From an uncultured Bacilli bacterium (GTDB lineage: Bacteria > Bacillota_I > Bacilli_A > RF39 > UBA660), in NCBI GenBank assembly GCA_934130105.1, contig CAKOXL010000004.1, positions 1 through 63,681 on the forward strand: a DNA stretch of 63,681 bases, given 5' to 3'. Positions 1 through 63,681 of this stretch are shown here, piece after piece. The notes under the pieces are model-generated. The model did not search any database. It had not been told where the DNA came from and saw nothing but the letters and a program-made list of their open reading frames with translations. The number at the start of each line of letters is the position of its first letter. Position 1 is the stretch's first letter. Position numbers and translations under genes: made by a program.

Positions 1-75
1 TCCAACTGTTATCAATATTAAACTTAATACTGCTATTAGTGTCAAAAATATCTGCTTCTTCTTACTATTTTTCAT
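1..75 (-). CDS. 5' end (first 25 codons, truncated by window edge) of a third paralog of the DGR-target-type secreted protein
   Basis: nt 1-75 are identical to 19379-19453 and encode MKNSKKKQIFLTLIAVLSLILITVG. A GGAGG-type RBS lies just upstream on the minus strand. Confidence 0.75.
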   Translation of the reverse strand, partial: MKNSKKKQIFLTLIAVLSLILITVG

Positions 76-14224: not shown

Positions 14225-15055
14225 TTATTTTGATAATTTTTTTATAGTATCGATATCTAATCCTGTTAAATCAGATATAGTAGAAATATCCATATCTTTA
14301 GCAAGCATGTTTTTAGCGATTTCTAATTGCTTCTTACTGGCACCTTCTTCAATACCATCTTCATAAGCTATTGCTTTTTCGGTATTTTTAATTAGTTCTT
14401 GGTCTTCTTCATAACTCATAAAACTTTGAAATGTTTCTTGATTATTTAAATCTGTCAATTTATCTTCATACTCTTTCACAAAATCATCTCCAATCGATAT
14501 TTTGTCAAGGTTATTTTGGTCTAAATCCAACATAATTAAATGTTTATATTCATTAACCTTGTTGTTATCTAAATTGTACCAATAATCAGTAATTTTGTCC
14601 ATATTGAATTCAATAATTTCAAAGTTATCAATATACCTTTTATCATTCTTATTCATAACATAATAATAAGAAACATCATCTACTTTTTTACTTAATCCAT
14701 AACTTAAATCAATATGTATGAATTTAGTTTTATAATCATACCTTTTACCACGGATTACTTTTCTAGAATAAATGTTAGTAAAATAAATAAAATTTCTAGT
14801 ATGCAAATAATCAGAATAGTTACAGTTTAACTCGATATGTAGATATTCATCACCATCTTTAACTAACACATCTACTATTTTAACTTTATCAATAGTACTA
14901 ATTACTGGTAATTCGTTTCTTAAAAATTCTATAATTTCTACATCCTTTTTTAAGATTCTAGATAATAATTTTTTTAATAATATGGGATTATCCTCATCAC
15001 AAAAGATAGTTTTAAATACTCGATCATATTTAGCCGTATAAAACTTAGTTACCAT
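14225..15055 (-). CDS. PD-(D/E)XK nuclease family transposase / Rpn-like recombination-promoting nuclease
   Basis: The N-terminus (YDRVFKTIF...) and the C-terminal helix-turn-helix-like tail (AKNML..ISDLTGLDIDTIKKL) are typical of this family. A paralog lies at 63496-63681. Confidence 0.7.
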   Translation of the reverse strand: MVTKFYTAKYDRVFKTIFCDEDNPILLKKLLSRILKKDVEIIEFLRNELPVISTIDKVKIVDVLVKDGDEYLHIELNCNYSDYLHTRNFIYFTNIYSRKVIRGKRYDYKTKFIHIDLSYGLSKKVDDVSYYYVMNKNDKRYIDNFEIIEFNMDKITDYWYNLDNNKVNEYKHLIMLDLDQNNLDKISIGDDFVKEYEDKLTDLNNQETFQSFMSYEEDQELIKNTEKAIAYEDGIEEGASKKQLEIAKNMLAKDMDISTISDLTGLDIDTIKKLSK

Positions 15056-15139
15056 ATTTTTCCTCCTTTTGTGCCATAATAACAGATAATAATAAGTATG
15101 TAAAATGTTCTATTTTATAAATTCAATGCAAAATAAAAA

Positions 15140-15177
15140 CCAATTTTAAATAATTACTAAAGAAAACTTAAAATTGG
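15140..15177 (-). terminator. Intrinsic terminator downstream of the DGR RT
   Basis: Minus strand: CCAATTTTAA...TTAAAATTGG stem followed by TTTTTATTTT. Confidence 0.55.
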
Positions 15178-15210
15178 CTTCATTATTTACTTTAATTTAC
15201 AAAAACATAT

Positions 15211-16242
15211 CTATTTTAAATAATCTTTGATAATAAACCTATCATGATATTTATTAATTAAATGGTAAGTATTAGCATGTCTTGCATGTGCTCTCCATGA
15301 ATTATAGCACATACGAATATTCGTAAAATCGAGCCTGTTATTTATAAAGTCAGTGTTTGCTTTTTTAACTAAAGCTTTTATTTTTTGCTTACTTCTTTTT
15401 CTGATTAAAAGATGGGTTTCATAAATTCGATATCCGCAAAAATCAACGCCTAAATTGTTAGGATAGTATTTACTTTTCCTATTAAGGTTAAGTTTTAATT
15501 TTTGATTTAAGAAAACTTCAATAAGTAATTTATATTTTCTTGCTTCTTTTTTATCGTTAACAAGTAATATAAAATCATCCATATAGCGGACATAATATTT
15601 AATCTTAAGGACTTCTTTTATATAATGATCAAGCTCATTTAAATATATATTAGCAAAGAATTGGGAGGTATAATTTCCAATAGGAATTCCTTTTCTATTA
15701 TTAGTATCATAAATTAATTTTCTAGTAAAAGTTAATAGTTTTTTATCACTAATATGGTGTTTCATAATTTCAAACAAAATATCTTTATCAATACTATAAA
15801 AATACTTTTGAATATCGCATTTTAAGATATAGTAATTATGTTTATTATGCCACATGATTTGCATATAATGTTGCAGTTGTTTTACCGCTTTATGAGTGCC
15901 TCTATTTTTAATGCAAGCATAAGTATCTTTTATGAACTTAGGTAAAATATATGGTAGTATAAACTCTTCAACATACCACTGATGGATAATTCTATCACGG
16001 TAAGGTAATGATTGAATAACTCTTTCTTTAGGTTCTGAAATTATAAATTCGTGATACTTTCCAACTTGGTAAGTATTATTTTTTACACTGCTATACAAAT
16101 TCATAAGGTTATTTTCTAAATCCATCTCAAATAAAATTACATCACTACGATTTCTTTTATTCTTAGAAGCTCTAATATGAGCATTATAAAATAGTATATA
16201 ATCAAGTTTATTATCAAACTGCTGTTTTATCGTTTTTGGCAT
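15211..16242 (-). CDS. DGR-type reverse transcriptase
   Basis: RT motifs KCDIQKYFYSID, IPIGNYTSQFFANIYL (the DGR-typical IGxxxSQ) and YVRYMDDF, with an adjacent TR/VR pair. Confidence 0.92.
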   Translation of the reverse strand: MPKTIKQQFDNKLDYILFYNAHIRASKNKRNRSDVILFEMDLENNLMNLYSSVKNNTYQVGKYHEFIISEPKERVIQSLPYRDRIIHQWYVEEFILPYILPKFIKDTYACIKNRGTHKAVKQLQHYMQIMWHNKHNYYILKCDIQKYFYSIDKDILFEIMKHHISDKKLLTFTRKLIYDTNNRKGIPIGNYTSQFFANIYLNELDHYIKEVLKIKYYVRYMDDFILLVNDKKEARKYKLLIEVFLNQKLKLNLNRKSKYYPNNLGVDFCGYRIYETHLLIRKRSKQKIKALVKKANTDFINNRLDFTNIRMCYNSWRAHARHANTYHLINKYHDRFIIKDYLK

Positions 16243-16586
16243 GATTTAATCCATCCACCTAATAAATTACATATGTTGGTTATTTTTTTACTCCATGCTT
16301 TATAATTATTGTTGTTAATATATTTTCTTTTATATGAAACTCTAACTAGTACTTTTAAAAATTTTATTTCATTATCTAGTAATGATAGATTATTTAATTT
16401 ATCGACTTTATCATATTGTTTATAAGCATTAATTATATATTTAATACCATTATAAGTAGTATTTTTAATTGTAGATACTAAAGATAATTTTTCACATTTA
16501 GGATATTTTTCAGTAATCATCTCTGTATAATAAATAAGTTCTATATATTGCTTATAAATTATTAGCTCTTCTACTACTTTAATCAT
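16227..16586 (-). CDS. avd: Avd-like accessory variability determinant (four-helix-bundle / 23S rRNA IVS protein family)
   Basis: 119 aa, basic and helical, with a KYPKCEKLSLVSTIKN..Y motif like the FPKxEKxxL family. It overlaps the RT start. Confidence 0.75.
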   Translation of the reverse strand: MIKVVEELIIYKQYIELIYYTEMITEKYPKCEKLSLVSTIKNTTYNGIKYIINAYKQYDKVDKLNNLSLLDNEIKFLKVLVRVSYKRKYINNNNYKAWSKKITNICNLLGGWIKSCQKR

Positions 16587-16974
16587 TTAGTATCACCTTT
16601 AATTCATAAAGAAAGTTGATTGCTTCAAGTGGTGTTAGTGTATTTATATCTATATTTTTTAATTTCTGTTCTAATTTAATATATTTTTGGGGAATTTCAG
16701 TCTTTTTTATTATGTTTTCTATTTCTTTTGTTTCAACTATCTGGATATCTAATTTATGATTATGGAAAACGCGCATATAATCTTCTAGTTTAACGTCTGG
16801 GAAACCACATTTATTTACTTCGTTCGTAAATTTGGTTTGTTTTAATACTACATACTGATTAATAGTATTAGCATCTTCTGATATGAAAATATAAAATTTT
16901 CCATTATGAAAAAGATATAATTTATCAGGATTATCTTGTTTTAATTTTAAATATTCATTATAAATTTTACTCAT
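16579..16974 (-). CDS. MutS domain-I-like small protein (DGR MSL-type accessory)
   Basis: YLKLKQDNPDKLYLFHNGKFYIFISEDANT...CGFP...Y resembles the MutS mismatch-binding N-domain (YxxxKxxxPDxxLLFRxGDFYExFxxDA...AGxP). A GAAGGAG RBS precedes the ATG at 16974. Confidence 0.6.
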   Translation of the reverse strand: MSKIYNEYLKLKQDNPDKLYLFHNGKFYIFISEDANTINQYVVLKQTKFTNEVNKCGFPDVKLEDYMRVFHNHKLDIQIVETKEIENIIKKTEIPQKYIKLEQKLKNIDINTLTPLEAINFLYELKVILND

Positions 16975-17001
16975 ACTACTCCTTCTTTCTAAAAAATATT
17001 T

Positions 17002-17032
17002 AAAAAAAAGCAGCACAAAAAAATTGTACTGC
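17002..17032 (-). terminator. Intrinsic terminator between the TR spacer and the accessory genes
   Basis: Minus strand: GCAGTACA-ATTTTTT-TGTGCTGC (8-bp stem with one G-U pair) followed by T8. Confidence 0.55.
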
Positions 17033-17340
17033 TAATCATGATATCTGATATTCGTATATTACTACTAACCAAATACCACTATTTATGTGTTTCTTTGAAG
17101 TTCAAAGAGGAATTTGATTTCTACGATAAACACTCAAAAATTATCCTTGAATAATTTTAATAGAATGAATTTAATTAAATTTTATATTGTAGTCTAAGAG
17201 CGAGAACGACACGGAACGAAATGTTGGTGTTCGTACCACCTGTGTTGTTGTTGAACGCAAAGGAACCGGCTTCAGTGCCATTGTTCCAATTGCCACCACG
17301 TTCGAACCAAGGGTTAGAAGAATTAACAAAGTTGGCGTTT
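17010..17340 (-). ncRNA. Putative DGR RNA (TR plus about 165-nt spacer ending at a terminator)
   Basis: The TR is noncoding: its frame runs into a stop after VVLALRLQYKI and has no RBS. A noncoding spacer and a terminator hairpin follow it. Confidence 0.45.
17198..17340 (-). repeat. DGR template repeat (TR)
   Basis: 143-bp match to 17554-17696. All differences are at plus-strand T, which is A on the coding strand. The frame is rich in AAC (Asn) codons. Confidence 0.92.
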
Positions 17341-17430
17341 GAAAAATGAGAAAAAAATACTACCTTTACAATCAAATCCCTACATTTGTACTATATATAT
17401 TTCAAAATTACAAATGCCATAATTTAAAGT

Positions 17431-17467
17431 CTCCCGATTTTTTTCAAAAAAGGGAAAAAATCGGGAG
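17431..17467. other. Perfect 13-bp-stem hairpin between VR and TR
   Basis: CTCCCGATTTTTT (17431-17443) pairs with AAAAAATCGGGAG (17455-17467) around an 11-nt loop. No canonical U-tract follows on either strand. Confidence 0.6.
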
Positions 17468-17542: not shown

Positions 17543-19453
17543 TTACTGTGCTGGAGCGAGAACGACACGGAACGAAATGCTGGTGTACGTACCACCTGTG
17601 CTGAGGCTGAACGCAAAGGAACCGGCTTCAGTGCCATTGCTCCAATGGCCACCACGTACGAACCAAGGGTAAGAAGAATGAACAAAGTAGGCGTAATCTT
17701 TATACCAACTAGATTTATATCTAGTACTACCATCTGGATCTTTTTCACTACCAAATGGTCCCATCTCTCCTGTTGCATCTCCTAATATTCTGTTATTATA
17801 ATTTGTATTTACAGTTGATGCATATTTATTCCAGTACTTAGTGTAAGTACTATCACTAAAGAAATTAGGATATAAACTAGTTATACCACTTGATCCACCA
17901 ACTGTTGTTGCTTTAGTAGTATATCCCATTACATACTCCCATGCGCCACCTGACATATCATATATTCCACTATAATTACCAGTTGTTGATGAAACAGTAG
18001 AATTATTATTAAAATAATTAACGGTATATGTTCCATCAACACCTAAACTAGTTGACTCTACTCTATTACCTTCTATACTTATTCCGCTATTATATCCTAA
18101 GGTTGGTTCACTTGTTCCAGAATATCCGGTTATATAACTTGAGTTATTATTTATTCTTACACTTGCTTGACTACCATATACTGAATGCTGTAAATAAGCT
18201 ACTGCTCCCCATTCTGTATTTTTCATCATATGACTATCTAAATTACGATTATAATCATAACTATTCTTGAATGCGTTCCCAACAGTTATACTTCGCCAAC
18301 TATATACATTGGGTTTTATGATAATTTTACTTGTATCTACACTATTTACTTGGGCAGACGTCGTTGATGTTGCTCCATCATATCCTGTTTCAAACTTTCC
18401 TACCCATAAACCATTTGTATCAAAAGCTATGAATGCTGGATGAGTTAGATATGTTCCTACCGTACTTCCAGTAGATGGTGTTGTTTCTTTATTTTCAAAT
18501 ATAATATCTATTGTTTGAGTAGAATTTCCAATACTTGTTAGTCCTGTATATGTTCCTTCATTAAATATTTTATATCTATATCTTGGTATCCATACAAAGT
18601 ATGATTCAATATTTGTTTCTGGTATTACTTCTCCATCTTGGTAAGTAATACTTTCATCTTTTAAGATAACGCTATTAGCCCACTTTTTATCAGCATAACT
18701 ATACCAAGCTGTTGTAGTATCCGCTTTAGTTACTACTCCTGTATCTGATATTACTACTGGTATTAGATTATCAGATATAACTGGATATGCTCCATTTAAA
18801 ATGGCTTCTTTATAAGCTATTTTATCTTGCTCTAATACTTTACCTGTTGAATATACATTTACTGTTATCGTAAACGCTTTATTATTTATGCTTCCATCTG
18901 AAAAATCAGTATCATCTGATAACCACATTCTTAATCTAAAATTCTTTTCATAGTTTGATGTATTAGCTGATACTTCTCCTTCATAGATAGTCTTTTCTAT
19001 TACCCCATCCGGTACTTTAGTATTAGTTTGAATTAGATTTGAATATTTATCTAATAGTATTTCCTTTTCAGTTCCATCTACTTCAGTTAAGTATAACTTT
19101 ACGTCATCTTCATCTAAGGTAGAATCACTCTTTTTTCTTGCTGTTACTTCATATGAAATACTAGAGTTCATTTCTATTGTTGAGGTTATCTTAAAATCAA
19201 ATACCTTTCCTTCACCTGTTTGAAGTTTTCCTTCTTCATCACTTATTGGAAATGCATCAGTTAAACTTATACCTTTTCCTATTCCACTTACTTCAGTATA
19301 TAGAAAGTTTATCTTACCTGTTTTTACGATATTATCAGTTACACCTGTTTTAGAATAAGTGAATAGTGAATAACTTACTCCAACTGTTATCAATATTAAA
19401 CTTAATACTGCTATTAGTGTCAAAAATATCTGCTTCTTCTTACTATTTTTCAT
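17543..19453 (-). CDS. DGR target protein: N-terminally anchored or secreted, with a C-terminal FGE-sulfatase/C-type-lectin-like (CLec) domain carrying the VR
   Basis: Signal/TM sequence and a VSYSLFTYSKTG motif that may be a SipW/TasA-like signal. FGE-like GGAWEYVMG. The C-terminus RGGHWSNGTEAGSFAFSLSTGGTYTSISFRVVLA equals the VR. Confidence 0.9.
   Translation of the reverse strand: MKNSKKKQIFLTLIAVLSLILITVGVSYSLFTYSKTGVTDNIVKTGKINFLYTEVSGIGKGISLTDAFPISDEEGKLQTGEGKVFDFKITSTIEMNSSISYEVTARKKSDSTLDEDDVKLYLTEVDGTEKEILLDKYSNLIQTNTKVPDGVIEKTIYEGEVSANTSNYEKNFRLRMWLSDDTDFSDGSINNKAFTITVNVYSTGKVLEQDKIAYKEAILNGAYPVISDNLIPVVISDTGVVTKADTTTAWYSYADKKWANSVILKDESITYQDGEVIPETNIESYFVWIPRYRYKIFNEGTYTGLTSIGNSTQTIDIIFENKETTPSTGSTVGTYLTHPAFIAFDTNGLWVGKFETGYDGATSTTSAQVNSVDTSKIIIKPNVYSWRSITVGNAFKNSYDYNRNLDSHMMKNTEWGAVAYLQHSVYGSQASVRINNNSSYITGYSGTSEPTLGYNSGISIEGNRVESTSLGVDGTYTVNYFNNNSTVSSTTGNYSGIYDMSGGAWEYVMGYTTKATTVGGSSGITSLYPNFFSDSTYTKYWNKYASTVNTNYNNRILGDATGEMGPFGSEKDPDGSTRYKSSWYKDYAYFVHSSYPWFVRGGHWSNGTEAGSFAFSLSTGGTYTSISFRVVLAPAQ
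17554..17696 (-). repeat. DGR variable repeat (VR) with a GC-rich IMH-like 3' end
   Basis: See the TR entry. The 3' end on the coding strand, CCGTGTCGTTCTCGCTC, is identical in TR and VR; the flanks then diverge (VR CAGC, TR TTAG). Confidence 0.92.
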
Positions 19454-19972
19454 AAAACTTCTCCTTCTGGTATCTAAGTTATATACTTAAACACTAGAAG
19501 ATGTCTGAATTAGCCTTAATACATAGGAAAATAGTTAATTATTGTAGTAAATCGTTTGTTGTTTTTTTATGTGTAGCAATTATTAAAAGTCGCAAAATAA
19601 AAGACTATAAGATAAACTTGATAGTCTCTAATTATATAACTTAAGGCCCTATTTTTACGATTTAATTGTATCAAATAGTAATTTTAAAAGCAAGGATAAA
19701 TTAAAAATTTAAAAAACTATCATAACAATTTAGATGTAATTTAATTATAGATAATTAATTCTTTAACAAAGAAACAGAAAAGACCTTTCAAAATTTGAAA
19801 AGTCTTTTTTAGTAGGAGTAATTTTATTTATGAAAACTTTTATACAAAGTTTAATTGATATATTAATATATATCAGGATTTATTATTTATTATCACTTCT
19901 CCTTTCAACACTACCAGTATATAAAATAATTATGATAAAAATATAAAATAATTATGGGAAATTATGGGAATG

Positions 19973-48595: not shown

Positions 48596-48619
48596 GTATA
48601 TGTTTAAAAAATTAAAAAA

Positions 48620-48649
48620 CCAATTTTAAGGAACAAAACTTAAGATTGG
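48620..48649. terminator. Bidirectional intrinsic terminator
   Basis: CCAATTTTAAG / CTTAAGATTGG stem flanked by A6 and T7. It is related in sequence to the terminator at 15140-15177. Confidence 0.55.
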
Positions 48650-48687: not shown

Positions 48688-50589
48688 TTATGGTGCTAAG
48701 ACAATACGGAATGAAAATGAGGCATGCATGCCACCTGTATGGTGGACGAATGCAAAAGAACCAGCTTCAGTGCCATGGTTCCAATCGCAACCACGTGCGA
48801 ACCAAGAGTTAGAAGAAAAAGCAAAGTAAGCATAATTTTTGTACCAACTAGATTTATATTTAGGACCACCATCTGGATCTAATTCACTACCAAATGGTCC
48901 CATCTCTCCTGTTGCATCTCCTAATATTTTATTATTATAATTTGTATTTACAGTTGATGTATATTTGTCCCAGTATTTTGAATAAGTGCTATCGCTAAAG
49001 AAATTAGGATATAAACTGGTTATACCACTTGCTCATCCTACTGTTTGATCTCCAGTAGCGTAACCCATTACATACTCCCATGCGCCACCACTCATATCAT
49101 ATATTCCACTATAATTACCAGTTGTTGATGAAACATTAGAATTATTATTAAAATAATTAACGGTATATGTTCCATCAACACCTAAACTAGTTGACTCTAC
49201 TCTATTACCTTCTATACTTATTCCGCTATTATATCCTAAGGTTGGTTCTATAGTGGCGGAATATCCAGTTATATAACTTGAGTTATTATTTATTCTTACA
49301 CTTGATTGGCTACCATAAGCTGAATGCTGTAAATAAGCTACTGCTCCCCATTCGGTATTTTTCATCATATGACTATCTAAATTTCTTTTGTAATCATAAC
49401 TATTTTTAAATGCGTTTCCAGCAGTTATATTTCGCCAACTATATACATTGGGTTTTATTATAATTTTACTTGTATCTACACTATTTACTTGTGAAGCTTC
49501 AGTTGTAGTCGCACCATCATATCCTGTTTCAAACTTTCCTACCCATAAACCATTCGTATCAAAAGCTAAGAATGCTGGATGAGTTAGATATGTTCCTACT
49601 TTAGTTCCAGTAGATGGTGTTGTTTCTTTATTTTCAAATATAATATCTATTGTTTGAGTAGAATCTTCAATACCTGTTAATCCTGTATAAGTTCCTTCAT
49701 TAAATATTTTATATCTATATCTTGGTATCCATACAAAGTATGATTCAATATTATCTTCTGGTATTATTTCACCATCTTGATAAGTAATACTTTCATCTTT
49801 TAAGATAACACTATTAGCCCACTTTTTATCTGAATAACTATACCAAGCTGTTGTAGTATCTGCTTTAGTTACTACTCCTGTATCTGATATTACTACTGGT
49901 ACTAGATTATCAGATATAACTGGATCTGCTCCATTTAAAATAGCTTCTTTATAAGTTTTATCTTGCTCTACTACTTTTCCATTTGCATATACATTTACGG
50001 TTATTATAAATGTCTTATTATTCATATCCCCTTGGGAAAAGTCTGTATCATTATCTATCCACATTCTTAATCTAAAGTTCTTTTCATAATTTGTTGTATT
50101 AGCTGATACTTCTCCTTCATAAATGGTCTTTTCTACTACGCCATCTGGTACTTTAGTATTAGTTTGTGTTAGATTTGAATATTTATCTAGTAGAATCTCT
50201 TCTTCTGTTCCATCTATTTCGGTTAAATATAATTTTACCTTATCTTCATCTAAGGTAGAATCACTCTTTTTTCTTGCTGTTACTTCATATGAAATACTAG
50301 AGTTCATTTCTATTGTTGAAGTTATTTTAAAATCAAATACCTTTCCCTCGCCTGTTTGAAGTTTTCCTTCTTCATCACTTATTGGAAATGCATCAGTTAA
50401 ACTTATACCTTTTCCTATGCCACTTACTTCAGTATACAAGAAGTTTATCTTACCTGTTTTTACGATATTATCAGTTACACCTGTTTTAGAATAAGTAAAT
50501 AGTGAATAGCTTACTCCTACTGTAATTAGTATTAAGCTTAATACTGCTACTAGTGTTAAAAATATTTGTTTCTTTTTATTACTTTTCAT
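48688..50589 (-). pseudogene. Paralog 2 of the DGR target gene, interrupted by a single in-frame TGA (49033-49035)
   Basis: ORFs 49033-50589 and 48688-48903 are in the same frame. The protein is collinear with the 636-aa target (..GAWEYVMGYATGDQTVG*ASGITSLYPNFF..). Confidence 0.75.
48693..48835 (-). repeat. Degenerate VR-like segment (VR2)
   Basis: Aligns without gaps to the TR, with about 37 mismatches. About 20 of these are at non-adenine positions, and the GC-rich IMH-like end is replaced by AT-richer synonymous codons. Confidence 0.75.
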
Positions 50590-63495: not shown

Positions 63496-63681
63496 TTATT
63501 TTTTTGATAATTCTTTTATAGTATCTATATCTAAACCCGTTATTTTGCTGATAGATTCAATTGGTAGATTCAAATTAAGCATATTTTTAGCTATTTCTAT
63601 ATTTCTTTGTTCCATTCCTTCTTCGTAGGCTATCCTTTTTTCAGTATTTTGAATTAATTTTTGATCCTCTTCATATGTCAT
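63496..63681 (-). CDS. C-terminal part (truncated by window edge) of a second PD-(D/E)XK / Rpn-like nuclease paralog
   Basis: The C-terminal 61 aa align to the tail of the 14225-15055 product (YEEDQ.LI.NTEK.IAYE.G...IAKNML....I..I..GLDIDTIK.LSK). Confidence 0.6.
   Translation of the reverse strand: MTYEEDQKLIQNTEKRIAYEEGMEQRNIEIAKNMLNLNLPIESISKITGLDIDTIKELSKK

Follow-up and report, generated by a model that had tools for sequence, protein, structure and literature searches.

A probable former target of a diversity-generating retroelement, interrupted by a nonsense codon, in the genome of an uncultured Bacilli bacterium

The contig CAKOXL010000004.1 of an uncultured Bacilli bacterium (assembly GCA_934130105.1), analysed over its whole length of 63,681 nt and referred to here as the window, harbors a complete diversity-generating retroelement (DGR) on the minus strand. 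The element is arranged in the order target gene with variable region (VR), hairpin, template repeat (TR), MutS-like (MSL) accessory gene, avd and reverse transcriptase (RT) gene. Its target gene is designated T1 and the variable region of this gene VR1. A related gene, T2 (48688-50589, minus strand), lies elsewhere in the window; it carries an in-frame TGA and a VR-like 3′ end (VR2) and is the subject of this study. The original prediction, made from the letters of the window, had described T2 as the second target paralog and as a decayed former DGR target. At least five paralogs with a C-type-lectin (CLec) fold, T1 to T5, were found in the source genome assembly (50 contigs, 1.21 Mb, 70.7% complete), and T2 is thus one member of a larger set. 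The coordinates of all features are collected in Table 1.

Translation of the complete T2 locus yielded exactly one internal stop, which bears out the earlier view that the 518-aa and 71-aa open reading frames (ORFs) are one frame split by a single TGA. In a genome-wide protein search the locus was recovered as a match to residues 1-634 of T1 with one TGA. The two genes share 90% DNA identity over 1863 nt, and their amino acid identity is 91% in the part upstream of the TGA and 88% overall in the protein search. Around the stop, T2 reads GGA TGA GCA AGT, as had been stated, T1 reads GGT GGA TCA AGT and T3 and T4 read GGT GGA GCA AG(T/C). The context GGA TCA AGT given previously for the intact paralog had dropped one Gly codon and falsely hinted at an indel. 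Since the TGA is aligned with a GGA in three paralogs, it is best explained by a G>T point substitution of Gly codon 519 without any indel. It is located 62 codons upstream of VR2, which occupies the right position for a variable region (the last 47 codons) but in an interrupted ORF.

The possibility of a sequencing error, raised together with the original prediction, was addressed at the protein level with the cluster tables of a protein collection. A 518-aa protein encoded on another contig (44,431 nt) is identical to the product of the first T2 ORF in 514 of 518 residues and ends at the same residue, and the downstream 71-aa ORF is identical on three contigs. Because a second, non-identical assembly encodes the same 518-aa product, the stop is a real and heritable lesion of the kind expected in a pseudogene, and one or more further strain assemblies that differ from this one have it too. 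An alternative genetic code (TGA as Gly or Trp; code 25), to which the alignment of the TGA with Gly might seem to point, was ruled out, as TGA ends 78 of 783 long frames in this genome, only two of which are followed by a long open frame, and no tRNA with a UCA anticodon was found in this genome. Relaxed constraint after the TGA was not seen. The dN/dS ratio between T2 and T1 is 0.12-0.26 in the 5′ part, and the 61 codons between the TGA and the VR gave a value of 0.28 versus 0.26 upstream; the 114 codons after the TGA contain no further stop, in an AT-rich genome. This unrelaxed and still open frame suggests that the lesion is young, and T2 would then, with good probability, be a young pseudogene that has lost its function.

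The VR-like segment of T2 was aligned to the TR without gaps at 48693-48833 and is too similar to it for chance (BLAST E 8e-24). The two sequences are identical at 106 of 141 positions. Mismatches number 35; they affect 15 of the 33 TR adenines and 20 of the 108 non-adenine bases (Fisher p 0.003), close to the roughly 37 mismatches in all and 20 outside adenines counted in the original prediction, so that VR2 lacks the adenine-only pattern of a live target. VR1, sorted in the same ungapped way, has 12 mismatches and all of them fall on TR adenines; the T1 element therefore looks active. Silent divergence between VR2 and TR or VR1 amounts to a dS of 0.63, as compared with 0.20-0.26 in the gene body. 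As the dS in VR2 is no lower than in the gene body, no overwriting of T2 by the TR after the split from T1 is indicated, and nothing in these sequences points to homing into T2 since then.

The 3′ end of T2 reads CGT ATT GTC TTA GCA CCA TAA, while VR1 ends with CGT GTC GTT CTC GCT CCA GCA CAG TAA and the TR with CGT GTC GTT CTC GCT CTT. Between ATT GTC TTA GCA in T2 and GTC GTT CTC GCT in VR1 and TR, 6 of 12 bases differ. A GC-rich end of the type seen at sites for the initiation of mutagenic homing (IMH) is thus replaced by AT-rich codons in T2, as had been noticed, although not all changes are synonymous, since one of them turns Val into Ile. Furthermore, the stretch after T2 folds at only -0.7 kcal/mol, no better than shuffled sequences, compared with -7.8 kcal/mol after T1. 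The 20 non-adenine mismatches, the missing GC-rich IMH-like end and the missing stem-loop support the earlier conclusion that T2 cannot now receive TR information.

The form of this end is not peculiar to T2. T2, T3 and T4 all end in ...FRIVLAP and a stop codon, then TAATTTT and a homologous 3′ flank, and the VR-like ends of T3 and T4 show 16 and 28 non-adenine mismatches to the TR, respectively. The last ~25 nt of T2 and T3 agree base for base and differ from the TR, and T4 has most of the same changes. Non-target paralogs in other species of the genus end in ...RIVL(A/T)P(xK)-stop, which is the same type. T1 and two targets of a related genome, G014, end in ...FRVVL(A/S)PAx-stop followed by a GCAC...GTGC inverted repeat. 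As the AT-rich end without a homing site is common to T2, T3 and T4, it would be an inherited state of the family, and the proposal that T2 lost its IMH by decay of its own is not upheld. A motif search for the T1-type hairpin and the bases following it in 80 loci of RT relatives matched only the G014 locus, so that conservation of the hairpin is shown for the nearest relatives only. In G014, two lectin-fold genes (loci L035 on contig C100 and L039 on contig C87) have the live-type end ...FRVVLSPAx and a GCAC...GGTGC hairpin. One TR-RT cassette was found for these two live-type targets, which suggests that this DGR lineage may be able to serve a remote second target.

Although uncoupled, the tails of the paralogs have kept a codon composition that resembles the TR. 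In T2, NNY codons are found at 11 of 12 TR AAY positions. For T2 to T4 together, 33 of 36 codons at these positions end in C or T versus 48% in the gene bodies (p 4e-8, a value that overstates independence, the paralogs being related to each other), and none of the 36 encodes K, E, Q, M or W, compared with 16.7% in the bodies. At four-fold degenerate codons that are A-free in the TR, a third-base A occurs in 2/17 cases in T2 and in 5/49 in T2 to T4 (59% in the bodies). Along the genes, the frequency of third-base A is 0.5-0.7 up to and including the 61 codons before the VR and drops in the last 53 codons to 0.11 in T1, 0.28 in T2, 0.22 in T3 and 0.27 in T4, which places a sharp step at the VR boundary; for four-fold codons of T2 the change is from about 0.57 just upstream of VR2 to 0.28 within it. 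The TR-type composition of T2 is consequently confined to the VR-homologous segment, as expected of a fossil VR. The NNY codons and the avoidance of adenine support a descent of the T2 tail from TR-templated sequence. The description of T2 as a former target therefore stands in this respect, and only the notion of a decay private to T2 is lost, because T2 to T4 share their state.

On this basis, we regard T2 as probably a frozen descendant of a DGR-written gene end, which would have been uncoupled together with its sisters T3 and T4 and in which a nonsense change would recently have abolished function. According to this model, T2 arose by dispersed duplication within a large family of proteins that are secreted or presumably located at the surface and have a C-terminal CLec-fold domain. 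T1 would be the member of this family that is rewritten here by the DGR. The last 141 nt of T2 would come from a TR-templated VR and would have kept the TR-like composition, including NNY codons at ligand-contacting positions. Lacking the three cis marks of a live target (adenine-only identity to the TR, the GC-rich IMH-like end and the stem-loop), T2 would have a fixed binding surface. The uncoupled state common to T2, T3 and T4 may have been inherited or spread by gene conversion. A later G>T change would have turned Gly codon 519 from GGA to TGA and cut off the last 114 residues; we infer this order, uncoupling before nonsense change, from the sequences. Several observations weigh against this model. 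The second assembly with the stop might come from a related sample. The downstream dN/dS is not raised and 114 codons are still open, and so the pseudogenisation would have to be very recent or readthrough would somehow have to occur. The paralogs in the footprint tests are not mutually independent, and the footprints may be inherited from an ancestral target, so that they are no proof that T2 itself was homed into after duplication. Finally, with an assembly that is 70.7% complete, the unassembled part leaves room for a second TR or RT.

The strongest of the competing explanations, in itself improbable, is that a TR-MSL-avd-RT cassette once lay directly behind T2 and was deleted there, leaving a shared terminator behind. 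It builds on a resemblance hinted at in the original prediction and found again here: the hairpins at 48620-48649 and 15140-15177 each fold at about -13 kcal/mol, and the T2 flank matches the flank after the RT stop with 72.6% identity over 73 nt (E 2.7e-4, whole-genome BLAST). The DGR footprints in the T2 tail would fit such a history as well. However, the same flank is found behind T3 (77 nt) and T4, the match between the ~155 nt after the RT stop and the T4 flank being the strongest (157 nt, 73%, E 9e-17), and in this closest pair both flanks are followed by PDDEXK_2 genes that are 75% identical in tblastn. The likeness is therefore not specific to T2, and the part of the prediction that saw in it the sign of a cassette deleted behind T2 is not supported. 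As the RT flank is homologous to the paralog flanks, the cassette, with a length of ~2.3 kb from the hairpin to the RT stop, appears as an indel that separates a gene end from a flank, both of which are typical of the family. The junction CCA TAA TTTT... is common to T2, T3 and T4 and points to at most one event, not necessarily at T2. The cassette would have been either inserted in the ancestor of T1 or deleted in the ancestor of T2 to T4, and both polarities fit the data. Recombination between VR and TR was also considered as the origin of the cassette-free junction and discarded, as it would not yield the junction observed.

A comparison of orthologous loci, in which an intact gene or a TR-RT cassette had been thought worth looking for, also bears on a deletion at T2. 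The rpe-proximal T2 locus of four related species contains neither a CLec gene nor a TR-RT cassette; rsgA and rpe are followed there by a ~990-aa gene or, in G018, by a short gene with the N-terminal module. From the absence of a lectin-fold gene at this locus in four relatives it follows that T2 is most likely a lineage-specific dispersed duplicate. Copies of PDDEXK_2, a nuclease/transposase family, are located at 14225-15055 and 63502-63681 of the window, at C13:3-713 and at the end of contig C11, several of them at contig ends, and these genes may be linked to the shuffling of the lectin-fold family.

Less probable than a deletion at T2 is that the TGA arose as an error of assembly or sequencing or represents a minority allele, and that T2 is intact, frozen and functional like T4. 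The lack of relaxed constraint downstream of the stop would be explained in this way, and consensus sequences of metagenome-assembled genomes (MAGs) are error-prone in multi-copy families. In contrast, the product in the second assembly ends at exactly the same residue despite four amino acid differences, and on three contigs the 71-aa ORF was called as a separate gene.

A further explanation is that T2 was never connected to a DGR, and that its likeness to the TR reflects a paralogy predating the capture of T1 by the DGR together with ordinary diversifying selection. The paralog family is indeed far more widespread in the genus than the RT, and in CLec proteins it is the ligand-binding positions that are hypervariable. 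Neither would account for silent third positions that avoid adenine in the last 53 codons, with a sharp boundary. The relative G007, in which no DGR RT was found at 94% completeness, provides further evidence: its six such paralogs have NNY codons at 68 of 72 positions and a third-base A in 13 of 96 cases, their four-fold degenerate residues at AAY positions are Y-ending in 21/24 cases versus 40% in the bodies, and Ser at AAY positions is encoded by AGY in 6/6. In the more distant paralogs of G014 and G018, the third-base A footprint is partly decayed (about 0.33). We therefore hold a T2 without any DGR ancestry to be very improbable and retain descent from a DGR-written end.

No second TR or RT was revealed when all 50 contigs were searched by BLAST, with the TR, the VR2 region and the two genes as queries, and when the RT, which has a single match in the source genome, was used in a protein search; apart from the TR and VR1, only the T3 and T4 ends that resemble a VR were returned. 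Hardly credible is a T2 that is still live and served by a second TR, perhaps with an RT, in the ~30% of the genome that is unassembled, for which the incomplete assembly and the two live targets for one TR in G014 may be cited, but against which stand the missing GC-rich end and hairpin, the identity of VR2 on three contigs, the 19-28 non-adenine positions at which T2, T3 and T4 differ mutually (each would need its own TR), the premature stop upstream of VR2, and the paralogs of G007.

The likely consequences of the TGA for the protein were derived from a structure model. Sequence searches of the target protein against Pfam, NCBIfam and the Protein Data Bank (PDB) gave no match. An AlphaFold2 (AF2) model of T1 residues 209-636 (~428 aa, with 78 relatives as input) reached a pLDDT of 97.5, and its best Foldseek matches in the PDB were the DGR variable proteins TaqVP (E 2.9e-9), Mtd and TvpA, as well as formylglycine-generating enzymes (FGE). 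The modelled T1 domain is a C-type-lectin/FGE-like fold typical of DGR targets, with the VR on its C-terminal face. The known structures (TaqVP, 5VF4; Mtd, 1YU0-4; TvpA, 2Y3C) resemble it in that the VR forms the C-terminal strands; they differ from it by low TM-scores (0.38-0.42), an identity of 11-17% and the larger size of the T1 domain. The TGA of T2 corresponds to residue 312 of 428 in this model and would delete the entire variable face together with about six core strands; the 518-aa product is therefore unlikely to fold.

Table 1. Features of the DGR, of T2 and of the paralogs discussed in the text (positions refer to the window unless a contig is given)
Feature	Position	Strand	Evidence or remark
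T2, 5′ part, 518 codons: N-terminal signal/anchor, shared 208-aa module, most of the lectin-fold domain	49036-50589	-	ORF list
In-frame TGA of T2, replacing GGA (Gly) of T1, T3 and T4	49033-49035	-	codon alignment
T2, 3′ part, 114 codons, still open, contains the 71-aa ORF (48688-48903)	48691-49032	-	ORF list
VR2, putative fossil VR at the T2 C-terminus, 141 nt	48693-48833	-	ungapped TR alignment
T2 intrinsic terminator: hairpin 48620-48649 and T run	48614-48649	-	fold -13.1 kcal/mol, z -5.25
T1, apparently live DGR target, 636 aa, CLec-fold C-terminal domain	17543-19453	-	ORF
VR1, apparently active variable region	17554-17694	-	12 differences from TR, all at TR adenines
Stem-loop directly after VR1, 6-bp stem, 4-nt loop	17537-17552	-	fold -7.8 kcal/mol
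TR, 141 nt, sole template repeat found in the assembly	17198-17338	-	BLAST/alignment
Structured RNA after TR	17037-17163	-	sub-threshold Rfam RT-14 match
MSL accessory gene, between TR and avd	16579-17016	-	Pfam MutS_I, E 1.6e-12
avd accessory gene	16227-16586	-	Pfam bAvd, E 6.8e-20
DGR reverse transcriptase, single copy in the assembly	15211-16242	-	Pfam RVT_1
Flank after RT, including terminator 15140-15177	15056-15210	-	homologous to T4, T3 and T2 flanks
PD-(D/E)XK (PDDEXK_2) gene after the DGR	14225-15055	-	Pfam; tblastn
T3	C22:3-1376		cut by contig end
T4, 796 aa	C13:899-3286		intact
T5	C2:49951-51735		more distant

The DGR around T1 combines RT, TR, avd and a small MutS-domain-I protein and thereby shows the features of the DGR “Architecture D”, which is defined by MSL genes together with avd (Wu et al. 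2018, PMC5758913). The order target-VR, TR, MSL (MutS_I), avd and RT agrees with this architecture; differences are the host lineage, which consists of MAGs of gut Bacilli, and the position of T2 outside the cassette. MSL is a known DGR accessory which occurs with or without avd and whose role is unexplained (PMC5758913). The presence of a mismatch-binding MSL domain beside mutagenic homing invites the question whether A:N heteroduplexes are shielded from repair. The sequence at 17037-17163 on the minus strand, which immediately follows the TR, matches Rfam RT-14 with 40 bits (E 0.005), less than the 48.1 required as gathering score; in DGR RNAs, a structured spacer from which cDNA synthesis is primed has this position. 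A strong hairpin resembling a terminator (CTCCCGATTTTTT...AAAAAAATCGGGAG) was detected between VR1 and TR, at 17420-17462 on the minus strand. As it separates the target gene from the TR, the TR RNA is probably transcribed from its own promoter. More than 555 relatives of the RT are found in GTDB genomes, in records titled uncultured gut Bacilli, Candidatus Onthousia and CAG-793.

In the Bordetella phage BPP-1, the elements of the target site comprise a GC-rich tract, the IMH and a stem-loop with a 4-nt loop (PMC12875486). T1 is similar in having a GC-rich stretch identical to the TR and, directly after it, a stem-loop of 6 bp with 4 nt in the loop. These elements, which may be needed in the present DGR too, are all missing from T2. 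In cyanobacteria, CLec paralogs of DGR variable proteins have been described that are dispersed in the genome, retain remnants of TR-VR homology and have no RT nearby, for example all3226 of Nostoc PCC 7120 (Vallota-Eastman et al. 2020, PMC7517822), and the authors proposed that diversification is removed once a variant has been selected or fixed (PMC7517822). Like T2, these genes are intragenomic target duplicates with recognisable 3′ homology to a TR and are uncoupled from the retroelement. Unlike them, the T2 family has a different N-terminal module (signal/anchor and 208-aa domain) and is hosted by small genomes of gut Bacilli, and for T2 the retired state is documented at the codon level by NNY codons and adenine avoidance, in addition to the nonsense codon. 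Retired target paralogs are hence already known, and the codon-level scar which persists in genomes without a found RT adds a useful detail and no new principle or mechanism.

T2 may thus illustrate how DGR targets leave the system, in that a duplicate keeps a compositional scar with a sharp boundary. This scar of NNY codons and adenine-free silent sites can flag former targets even in genomes in which no reverse transcriptase remains. Uncultured gut Bacilli have very large families of lectin-fold surface proteins, which the scar could help to annotate, and it could also be used to date when diversification was lost. The protein family comprises 3764 clusters at 50% identity (E<=0.001) and is represented by 15-27 matches in each genome of relatives with 1-1.5 Mb. 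In the source genome, more than 10 other genes share only the N-terminal 208-aa module and have different C-terminal domains. A doubtful extension would be a two-tier repertoire, in which one DGR-coupled copy per genome explores binding specificities, and duplication or gene conversion stores the winners in uncoupled, germ-line-like fixed paralogs. If this were true, stop-bearing copies like T2 would act as silent cassettes, which gene conversion could restore or donate, and uncoupled paralogs in genomes without a found RT would be the remainder after loss of the writer.

The family breaks the assembly at many contig ends (window 1-75, C45, C24, C34, C23, C22 and C13); positions 1-75 of the window repeat the first 75 nt of T1 in reverse complement, with 100% identity. 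T2 and one member on contig C9 share a common leader that differs from that of T1 and does not include the repeat pair found there. Upstream of T1 (19455-19680, minus strand), an AT-rich stretch of ~170 nt just before the ribosome-binding site is flanked by two inverted repeats of ~20 nt, the arms being GGCCTTAAGTTAnnTAATTAGAG and CTCTAAkTAnnTAACTTAGATACC. The same repeat pair is located upstream of family members on contigs C22, C10, C29, C7 and C45, and its arms co-vary between members. It could form a long-range stem in the leader RNA or delimit an invertible, phase-variable promoter segment.

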